A DNA stretch of 4,019 nt. Origin: a virus. Its lineage: Duplodnaviria > Heunggongvirae > Uroviricota > Caudoviricetes. The translations under genes were made by a program, and so were the position numbers. Shown here one piece after another: positions 1 through 3,966 of this stretch. The notes under the pieces are model-generated. The model did not search any database, was not told the origin of the DNA, and was given only the letters and a program-made list of their open reading frames with translations. The stretch's first letter is position 1; every line of letters begins with the position of its first letter. The stretch lies in the IMG/VR virus record IMGVR_UViG_2703718782_000019. One strand, written 5' to 3'.

Positions 1-2943
<2,943 letters not shown>

Positions 2944-3046
2944 ACAGCCTTCCCCTGAATAAATTAACCGCCACTTGCCATTCCGTACAGAAGTCGGATA
3001 TCCTTCGCCCGAAAAGCATGAAACACATTTCTGCCATGCTAAAGAG

Positions 3047-3082
3047 AAACCCCGGTATCAGCAGATACCGGGGTTTTCTTTC
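3047..3082. terminator. Bidirectional Rho-independent terminator hairpin
   Basis: Perfect 13-bp inverted repeat AAACCCCGGTATC (3047-3059) / GATACCGGGGTTT (3064-3076) around a 4-nt loop AGCA. The GC-rich core CCCCGGTATC/GATACCGGGG is followed by TTTTCTTTC on the plus strand and by TTTCTCTTT on the minus strand. Confidence 0.55.
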
Positions 3083-3148
3083 ATGCCCACCGATAATCCT
3101 GTTGGTTAAAACCGGTAATGGCATAAAAATTCTGAATATCTTCACATT

Positions 3149-3176
3149 TTCACACACTGACTGTGGCGCTTATAAT
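3149..3176 (+). promoter_or_regulatory. Sigma70-type promoter, -35 TTCACA (3149-3154), 16-bp spacer, -10 TATAAT (3171-3176)
   Basis: Perfect -10 hexamer and a 5/6 match to the -35 consensus at 16-bp spacing. An AT-rich tract lies upstream (GCATAAAAATTCTGAATATC), and a second TTCACA copy sits at 3141-3146. Predicted transcription start is about 3183-3185. It points away from J and towards the 3' end of I. Confidence 0.5.
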
Positions 3177-3182
3177 TTCGCT

Positions 3183-3280
3183 GCGTTAGTGTTTTTTTGC
3201 CCGAGTAACAAAAACAACTCCTTAACATTGATCTTCATTTGTCTGTCCCCGCAGCTCCGCGATCACTGCGGGATTTTTTT
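3183..3280 (+). ncRNA. Candidate small RNA of about 98 nt (promoter to intrinsic terminator), convergent with I
   Basis: Bounded by the TTCACA-16-TATAAT promoter and the terminator at 3247-3280. There is no ATG in the transcript and no plausible ORF. The layout is a 5' region with a CA-rich single-stranded stretch (UAACAAAAACAACUCCUUAACA), an AU-rich stretch (CAUUUGUCUGU), then a GC hairpin and U7 tail, which is typical of Hfq-dependent sRNAs. Confidence 0.35.
3247..3280 (+). terminator. Rho-independent terminator: GC-rich stem plus T7 tract
   Basis: Stem CCCGCAG (3248-3254) / CTGCGGG (3266-3272), loop CTCCGCGATCA, followed by A then TTTTTTT (3274-3280). On the minus strand the hairpin is preceded by an A-run rather than followed by U's, so it is plus-strand specific. 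It ends 6 nt from the I stop codon. Confidence 0.6.
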
Positions 3281-3285
3281 ATGTT

Positions 3286-3966
3286 TTATCCCTGTCGCCC
3301 GACAACCACGACCGTTCCGCCCCCGCCTTCATCACGGGTGCTGATGTCCTGGGATATACGGCGGGAGCCAACCAGCATTTCCCCGTAAGGCACCGGCATC
3401 GGGTTCCCCTGGGCAATCATGTTATCCAGCGAGGAAAAGTACGTGTTCTGTCTGCCGTTATCCGTTGCGCGGTAATCCGGTGTTTTTGCCTTCGGGGCCA
3501 GCATCTGGGCCACACCGCCCAGAATCATGCTGGCTCCAAGTGAAAACAGCATTGTGGTGGCAGAAAAACCACCGGCTGCCAGGGCTGAACCCCATAACGC
3601 CATTGATGCCCCGGCAGTGAAGAAAGAGCCCACGATGGCTGCCGCCCCCAGCACAATCTGCAGTCCACCCTTTCCGGCCCCGGCCAGTCGCGGCACAATA
3701 TGGATGACCGTTCCCTCACCCAGCTGTTCGTGAAGACGGGCGTACACCGCCTCCGGTGCCGTGTCATAACCGGCAATACGTATCTGGTACCAGCCTTCGT
3801 TCATCTGACGGCGAAAGCCCGGCACCTGTAACGACAGCGCCCGGATGGCTTCCGCTGCCGTGTTCACATACAGGCTGAGGCGGCGGCCAAATCGTTGTAA
3901 ATCCCCGTGAAGGCAGATGCGTGCCAGTGGCGGTGACGCCAGACAGAATGCGTTCGTCGTTGCCAT
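3286..3966 (-). CDS. I: Tail assembly protein I
   Basis: 226-aa ORF MATTNAFCLASPPLARICLHGDLQRFGRRLSLYVNTAAEAIRAL...GASMILGGVAQMLAPKAKTPDYRATDNGRQNTYFSSLDNMIAQGN...YGEMLVGSRRISQDISTRDEGGGG, collinear with and highly similar to lambda gpI, which I recall as about 223 aa. ATG at 3966-3964 with GGGAGAGG upstream; stop TAA at 3288-3286. Confidence 0.9.
   Translation of the reverse strand: MATTNAFCLASPPLARICLHGDLQRFGRRLSLYVNTAAEAIRALSLQVPGFRRQMNEGWYQIRIAGYDTAPEAVYARLHEQLGEGTVIHIVPRLAGAGKGGLQIVLGAAAIVGSFFTAGASMALWGSALAAGGFSATTMLFSLGASMILGGVAQMLAPKAKTPDYRATDNGRQNTYFSSLDNMIAQGNPMPVPYGEMLVGSRRISQDISTRDEGGGGTVVVVGRQG

Follow-up and report, generated by a model that had tools for sequence, protein, structure and literature searches.

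What does a perfect palindrome do in the spacer between two co-directional phage tail genes, upstream of an antisense small RNA gene? The question is raised by a 4,019-nt stretch of DNA from a virus of the Caudoviricetes (IMG/VR record IMGVR_UViG_2703718782_000019), hereafter called the window, in which such a palindrome separates the tail genes I and J. The original prediction, made from the letters and their open reading frames, saw in it a bidirectional terminator that might act as a checkpoint on J expression and insulates a candidate sRNA unit from J. Our analysis leads to a somewhat different picture, in which the hairpin is probably a Rho-independent terminator competent on both strands, situated at the edge of a cargo ('moron') region that is inserted between I and J and also carries the sRNA gene pasB.

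The hairpin between genes I and J

Both tail genes lie on the minus strand, and 342 nt separate them in the window. The features needed to place the hairpin are the following.

3286-3966, minus strand: tail assembly gene I (Pfam Lambda_tail_I)
1135-2943, minus strand: J (tail tip/host specificity), first 602 codons (Pfam FNIII-A_GpJ and Phage-tail_3)
3047-3076: hairpin found by repeat search, with arms 3047-3059 (AAACCCCGGTATC) and 3064-3076 (GATACCGGGGTTT) and loop 3060-3063 (AGCA)
3041-3082: longer near-palindrome (about 20 bp, one bulge), whose A-rich and T-rich flanks supply the U-tract of each strand

The arms of the hairpin are 13 nt long and 100% complementary across a loop of 4 nt, and 10 bp of this perfect stem (3050-3059/3064-3073) form a GC-rich core. 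The J start codon occupies 2943-2941 on the minus strand, 104 nt downstream of the foot of the hairpin, close to the distance of about 100 nt first given. In the whole window, only one inverted repeat pairs perfectly over 13 bp or more around a loop of 3-8 nt, against a mean of 0.0 in shuffled sequences (n=200). The plus strand folds between 3040 and 3090 with an energy of -26.0 kcal/mol (z = -7.4) and the minus strand between 3033 and 3085 with -29.8 kcal/mol (z = -7.6); on either strand, none of 200 dinucleotide shuffles matched the observed value. In RNA folding, the core hairpin alone accounts for -18.5 and -19.1 kcal/mol. Repeat search, folding and shuffles therefore agree on the 13-bp perfect inverted repeat with a GC-rich core and T-rich sequence on both sides from which the original prediction had started.

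The stable GC-rich stem-loop is followed directly, on its 3' side, by a U-rich tract, as in intrinsic terminators, and this holds for both strands of the same palindrome. On the plus strand the core is followed by TTTTCTTTC at 3074-3082 (RNA UUUUCUUUC), and on the minus strand by TTTCTCTTT, the complement of 3041-3049 (RNA UUUCUCUUU); seven of the nine positions are U in each tail. An approximate terminator score was positive on both strands (+33 and +22). This score, of the d'Aubenton-Carafa (1990) type and not recalibrated, combines hairpin energy per nucleotide with a weighted T-tract. Applied to the trp attenuator and to lambda tR2, the same score gave +36 and +25, values similar to those of the hairpin. 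The list returned by a simple consensus terminator scan does not include the hairpin, because its rule counts the A/T pairs and one G-T pair as part of the stem, which leaves fewer than five T for the tail window; the omission reflects the rule and is no evidence against the hairpin. The A-tract upstream of the stem can pair with the U-tract and may thereby lower the efficiency of termination.

The J reading frame is broken near 1135-1148, and its remainder continues in another frame to the edge of the window. When an intact J of 1157 residues is aligned with the window, residues 1-602 are found in one frame (2943-1138) and residues 640-1048 in another (1148-3), which therefore indicates a deletion or a frameshift in J. 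Judging from this alignment, J of this prophage is probably a pseudogene, like that of Sakai Sp12 (ECs_2233-2235).

The neighbouring sRNA gene is pasB

On the I side of the hairpin, the plus strand carries a complete small transcription unit, antisense to I and J.

3128-3149, plus strand: CRP-like site AATTCTGAATATCTTCACATTT (one mismatch to AAWTGTGA-N6-TCACAWTT, 0.01 expected by chance)
3149-3176, plus strand: pasB promoter TTCACA-16-TATAAT (promoter scan, 11/12 matches)
3198-3280, plus strand: PasB sRNA (published 83-nt extent, transferred from E2348/69 by alignment)
3248-3254/3266-3272, plus strand: stem of the PasB terminator, followed by T7 at 3274-3280 (terminator scan and folding)

The published Northern probe for PasB, AATCCCGCAGTGATCGCGGAGCT (PMC8550237, table S6), is identical to the reverse complement of 3253-3275, and the E2348/69 locus aligns without gaps from about position 3123 to the end of I. 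The candidate sRNA unit of the original prediction is therefore real, and corresponds to PasB. In EPEC E2348/69, PasB is an 83-nt Hfq-dependent sRNA validated by Northern blotting and RIL-seq (Pearl Mizrahi 2021, PMC8550237), and it has been described as embedded, in antisense orientation, in a phage structural-gene operon (Zhu, Shabalina and Storz 2026, preprint). The sRNAs EcOnc22, EcOnc23 and EcOnc24 of EHEC Sakai (about 85 nt, Hfq-dependent; Tree 2014, PMC4104026) are homologues of PasB; in Sakai Sp11 and Sp15, their probe is complementary to the PasB-like body. The PasB locus is present in roughly 30% of complete E. coli genomes. The hairpin itself is outside the PasB RNA, whose promoter-proximal end lies over 100 nt further downstream.

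PasB is reported to reach higher levels in LB than in DMEM (PMC8550237); catabolite control via the CRP-like site would be consistent with this. The site is centred about 44.5 nt before the start that the TATAAT box predicts, a spacing that is not canonical. The 5' end predicted from the promoter, near 3183, would give an RNA of about 98 nt, and the published sizes of PasB and EcOnc22 are 83-85 nt. The PasB start near 3198 falls just after a conserved GCGTTA-N2-3-T6-7 motif; mature PasB may be processed at the U-rich stretch 3183-3198.

Several other assignments of published small RNA signals to this spacer were considered. Read directly in NC_002695.2, the Hfq peaks of EcOnc22-24 fall on the hairpin of module B, an unrelated block that takes the place of the present one in other prophages (see below). 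This assignment was rejected, the 2014 coordinates being shifted by about 135 nt: the shift was checked with the AgvB1 probe, and the corrected peaks land on the PasB body. The EcOnc coordinates in Table S2 of PMC4104026 are offset by about +135 nt in NC_002695.2, at least around 1.94-2.9 Mb. With this correction, there is therefore no published Hfq or 3'-end signal at the hairpin. AgvB was ruled out as the sRNA of the I-J spacer by its position downstream of pR', and HnrS (EcOnc10-12) belongs to a different locus. In the RIL-seq supplements, the I-J spacer of E2348/69 contains no feature besides PasB, and an Rfam scan of the whole window at E <= 1 matched no family, AgvB and AsxR included. 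Predicted pairing between PasB and the J leader was not above that of shuffled controls.

The hairpin belongs to a near-invariant block

The hairpin resides in an orphan non-coding block that we call module A.

2944-3122: module A, 179 bp, from the J start codon to the pasB promoter region

Module A contains both the hairpin and the ribosome-binding site of J. In Sakai Sp12, the hairpin is located at 2217493-2217524 of NC_002695.2. It is found in 1446 of the 5426 complete E. coli genomes, including O157:H7 (Sakai Sp12), O145, O111 and ST131 strains, with an identity of at least 95% in all 1451 matching E. coli records and of at least 99% in 1442 of them. Three segregating sites were counted in the 179 nt, for a nucleotide diversity of 0.0007 (47 distinct haplotypes), compared with 0.071 and 0.051 at the third codon positions of J and I, respectively, and 0.12 in the PasB body. 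Diversity climbs within 50-100 nt on either side of the block, the immediate flanks being 30-100 times more diverse, and module A is found next to several versions of pasB and J. Searches of E. coli genomes and of phage and plasmid collections turned up neither a diverged relative nor a source sequence. The near-invariance of the block amid variable flanks hints at recent spread or strong constraint: it could be the product either of a single recent origin combined with recombination in the conserved flanks, or of strong constraint throughout.

The position of the hairpin is fixed. All the occurrences examined in viral contigs (80 of the 112 found) are in the module A context, and all E. coli genome matches cover the full module, with the exception of one deletion derivative. 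A dispersed palindromic repeat of the REP/ERIC type, or the end of a mobile element, could be ruled out on the grounds that the palindrome is confined to this context. One IMG/VR contig (L112), which looked like an exception, carries an IS3-family insertion (OrfA/OrfB) inside module A, on the pasB side and 12 nt from the hairpin, which separates pasB from the hairpin and J. The natural variants of the hairpin comprise one-base indels in the A/T flanks (in the Sakai form the stem measures 14 bp and the sense-strand tail reads UUUUCUUUA), one G-to-A mismatch in the stem and one 47-nt deletion that removes the hairpin altogether (contig L039). Module A varies so little that no covariation test is possible for its hairpin.

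Unrelated sequences place a putative terminator at the same position

We compared the I-J junction of E2348/69, Sakai, GenBank phages and 80 IMG/VR contigs anchored on gene I. The pasB promoter region is shared, and beyond the CRP-like site the sequence up to the J start codon exists in unrelated versions. The CRP-like site, which abuts the -35 element of pasB and is kept in every pasB variant seen, even very diverged ones, is the conserved boundary common to modules A and B. Among the 80 viral contigs, 58 carry module A, about 16 module B and three a sodC insert.

Module B, about 75 bp long, is not homologous to module A and occupies the equivalent position, with the pasB promoter on one side and J on the other. 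It is present in E2348/69, in Sakai Sp11 and Sp15 and in Stx1a and Stx2c phages, and was found in 888 genomes, often in several copies, with 60-100% identity. It also contains a GC-rich hairpin, here of 9-10 bp (for example ACAGGCACCC-UCCG-GGGUGCCUGU) and followed by (U/C)GUUUUU. The 134 copies that we analysed reduce to 29 distinct sequences, and hairpin and U-tract are present in all of them. Only the I/J sense strand has the U-tract; seen on the pasB strand, the hairpin is preceded by an A-tract and its antisense tail has U at two of nine positions, so that terminator features are seen on the sense strand alone. The 35-50 nt between this U-tract and the J start codon exist in at least four unrelated versions.

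At one pair of the module B stem, seven distinct variants have C-G, three have U-A and one has U.G; two further pairs vary through G.U only. Paired bases fill 97.5% of the cells of the stem, versus 36-48% when the partner is slid by one to three columns. Nevertheless, the observed covariation score was reached by 30 of 500 shuffles, and in view of this weak control we treat the covariation as suggestive only. The stronger argument lies in the comparison of the two modules, in which two non-homologous sequences put a strong hairpin and a sense-strand U-tract at the same spot. In this respect, module B supports the presence of a putative terminator just before J on the sense strand.

In a third arrangement, a sodC-like gene is inserted in antisense orientation between pasB and J, and its terminator is located directly upstream of the pasB promoter, that is, at the position of the hairpin. 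A sense-strand terminator before J is absent from this arrangement; such a terminator is therefore not obligatory and its function is dispensable. In more distant relatives, I and J are adjacent, with a spacer of about 50 nt.

Four contigs with an I-J spacer of 850-900 nt (L087, L091, L092 and L102) carry the antisense sodC-like (Cu,Zn superoxide dismutase) gene. The insertion has taken the place of the pasB promoter in L087, L092 and L102, where the PasB body is found just downstream of the sodC terminator; in these three, PasB might be made from, or lost to, the sodC transcript. Two other contigs, from Pseudocitrobacter and Enterobacter (L096 and L098), have a spacer of about 630 nt with a sense-oriented lipoprotein-like gene of about 150 codons, followed by a terminator-like hairpin (AACCCAGCTCATGCTGGGTT plus a T-run) about 10 nt before the J region.

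Since pasB, sodC-like and lipoprotein genes have all been found there, the I-J junction can be regarded as a recurrent cargo site, in which each cargo unit ends in a terminator-like hairpin. As expected for the boundary of a moron, the hairpin of the window lies in a spacer with independently transcribed cargo that is absent from related phages.

A probable two-way terminator at the edge of a cargo region

We consider it probable that the hairpin works as a terminator in both directions. On the late-operon (minus) strand, a polymerase lacking Q would cross pasB in antisense orientation and release its RNA at UUUCUCUUU, about 100 nt before J. In the lysogen, stray transcription, including leakage from the strong pasB promoter region, would in this way be kept off J and the genes beyond. 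On the pasB (plus) strand, transcripts antisense to J would end some 50 nt short of the CRP-like site and the pasB promoter, and would be kept from occluding that promoter. The minus strand could be supplied with polymerase by the late operon, and the plus strand only by a weak promoter-like match at 2975-3004 or by antisense transcription through J. No minus-strand promoter feeding the hairpin passed the promoter scan, and inspection by hand yielded only weak candidates.

It is well established in lambda that the Q-modified polymerase passes intrinsic terminators. During lytic growth it should likewise pass the hairpin, which would therefore act on unmodified polymerase only, as an insulator and not as a checkpoint. 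The regulatory checkpoint on J expression proposed at the outset is thus not supported, whereas the terminator itself is supported in part: the anatomy of an intrinsic terminator is present on both strands, and the unrelated hairpin of module B, with its 29 variants and one compensatory pair, favours a role on the sense strand. The role on the plus strand is less sharply defined; the hairpin may shield the pasB promoter, form the end of a short unrecognized RNA or be the relic of a lost cargo gene.

The second of these possibilities is based on an additional feature of module A.

2975-3004, plus strand: sigma-70-like match TTGCCA-18-TATCCT (9/12 matches, about 2.3 expected by chance in the window)

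This match would place a start near 3011, and the hairpin could then mainly terminate a short plus-strand RNA of module A, about 72 nt long (roughly 3011-3084), transcribed in tandem upstream of pasB and possibly an sRNA of the Hfq type. Folding predicts for this RNA a 5' stem-loop, an A-rich linker AAAGAGAAA and a strong terminator with the tail UUUUCUUUC, and a 5' stem-loop, an A-rich linker and a U-tailed terminator are the layout typical of Hfq-binding sRNAs. The near-invariance of the 179 nt would also fit an RNA constrained in sequence, but a single recent origin explains it equally well. The promoter match is weak, with 9 of 12 positions, an 18-nt spacer and some 2.3 such matches expected by chance, the predicted RNA is without an Rfam match, and no Hfq (EcOnc) peak is listed in the I-J spacer of Sakai Sp12, which carries module A. 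Altogether, we regard this short RNA as a tentative and rather unlikely main function of the hairpin.

A bolder version, somewhat less likely still, sees module A as a young regulatory cassette of 179 nt under positive selection, whose sweep would have reached about one in four E. coli genomes. The hairpin would then be the 3' end of a functional RNA, either a plus-strand sRNA in tandem with PasB or a sense RNA that carries the full PasB complement as a sponge or antisense partner, and that would tie the activity of PasB to transcription of the tail operon.

Alternatively, the hairpin could be the terminator of a deleted antisense cargo gene that once stood between J and pasB, retained since as harmless. 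The sodC arrangement, in which the terminator of an antisense cargo gene is located directly upstream of the pasB promoter, provides a model for such an ancestor; in module A, hardly any sequence separates the promoter-like site from the terminator, and the hairpin has been lost once in nature (contig L039). Yet no version of module A split by a gene was found in the E. coli genomes, phages or plasmids searched. Module A is found more often than any other arrangement, in 1446 genomes and combined with several versions of pasB and J. The retention by module B of a terminator at the same spot argues in turn that a terminator is useful there. These observations make a relic doubtful in our opinion.

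The hairpin could also act within the late mRNA that reads through it, as a processing site for RNase III or as a 3' stabilizer uncoupling the decay of the upstream tail mRNA from that of J. Intercistronic hairpins play a comparable role in the processing or stability of other phage late transcripts, and the present one likewise separates two cistrons of a long polycistronic late mRNA. RNase III needs a stem of about 20 bp, a length that the extended stem approaches (about 20 bp). The late mRNA moreover contains the full complement of PasB just upstream, and a PasB-mRNA duplex would be a possible second substrate. However, this remains a structural inference, PasB pairs with the J leader no better than expected by chance, and the stems of module B, with 9-10 bp, are too short for RNase III, while position and U-tract fit termination better. 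A role of this kind appears improbable.

Finally, it is most improbable that the palindrome is incidental to a small protein gene, since the 66-codon ORF concerned (3124-2924, minus strand; hypothetical in phage ASU11), although it spans exactly module A and encodes a hydrophobic stretch between basic residues, is broken by frame-shifting one-base indels beside the hairpin in natural variants, including that of O157:H7 Sakai Sp12, has no Pfam or PHROG family and no Shine-Dalgarno sequence, crosses a hairpin of -26 kcal/mol and overlaps the J start.

If the two-way terminator operates as predicted, it would show how prophages wall off an antisense sRNA gene in a tail operon: the lysogen could express the sRNA while J and the downstream cargo stay silent, and the lytic programme would be unaffected because the Q-modified polymerase ignores the stop. 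This should be useful for annotation of the PasB locus and for the interpretation of prophage transcriptomes in EHEC, EPEC and ExPEC. More intriguing than the hairpin itself is the near-invariance of a 179-bp block amid variable flanks.

Comparison with known systems

The hairpin is best regarded as a conventional element of a known class, and it is not described in the literature that we searched. Our search found no 3'-end (Term-seq, 3'-RACE), Northern or reporter results at the hairpin, and a search by locus tag returned nothing relevant. The papers on PasB and EcOnc22-24 deal with the same locus; they describe the sRNA and not the hairpin, and the prophages concerned, in E2348/69 and Sakai Sp11/Sp15, have module B.

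Within the lambdoid late unit, a first point of comparison is tR', the terminator located just downstream of the late promoter pR' and passed by Q, whose terminated product is the sRNA StxS (Sy 2020, PMC7547250). In both cases an intrinsic terminator is placed in the late unit and its effect depends, or in the case of the hairpin would depend, on whether the polymerase carries Q. The example of tR' also shows that the by-products of termination can be functional RNAs. In contrast to the hairpin, tR' is promoter-proximal and fed by a constitutively active promoter; upstream of the hairpin, no promoter of this kind is evident on the sense strand.

Bidirectional terminators of E. coli, which usually separate convergent genes, are symmetric hairpins flanked by an A-tract and, on the opposite side, a U-tract. 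The hairpin of module A has the same perfect palindromic stem with mirrored A-rich 5' and U-rich 3' flanks. Its setting is different, as I and J are co-directional and the sole opposing unit is an sRNA gene that starts, rather than ends, beside the hairpin.

A further parallel may be drawn with the terminators that bound morons in lambdoid late operons. A moron, a concept credited to Juhala/Hendrix in 2000 and mentioned in PMC4104026, is an additional transcription unit that has a promoter and a factor-independent terminator of its own. Like the terminators that bound morons, the hairpin combines a GC-rich stem-loop with a U-tract in a late-operon spacer that has repeatedly accepted cargo, and the Q-modified polymerase is expected to pass it. 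It differs from them in that its cargo, pasB, is antisense to the operon and has a separate terminator of its own, whereas the hairpin stands upstream of the cargo promoter and faces both ways.
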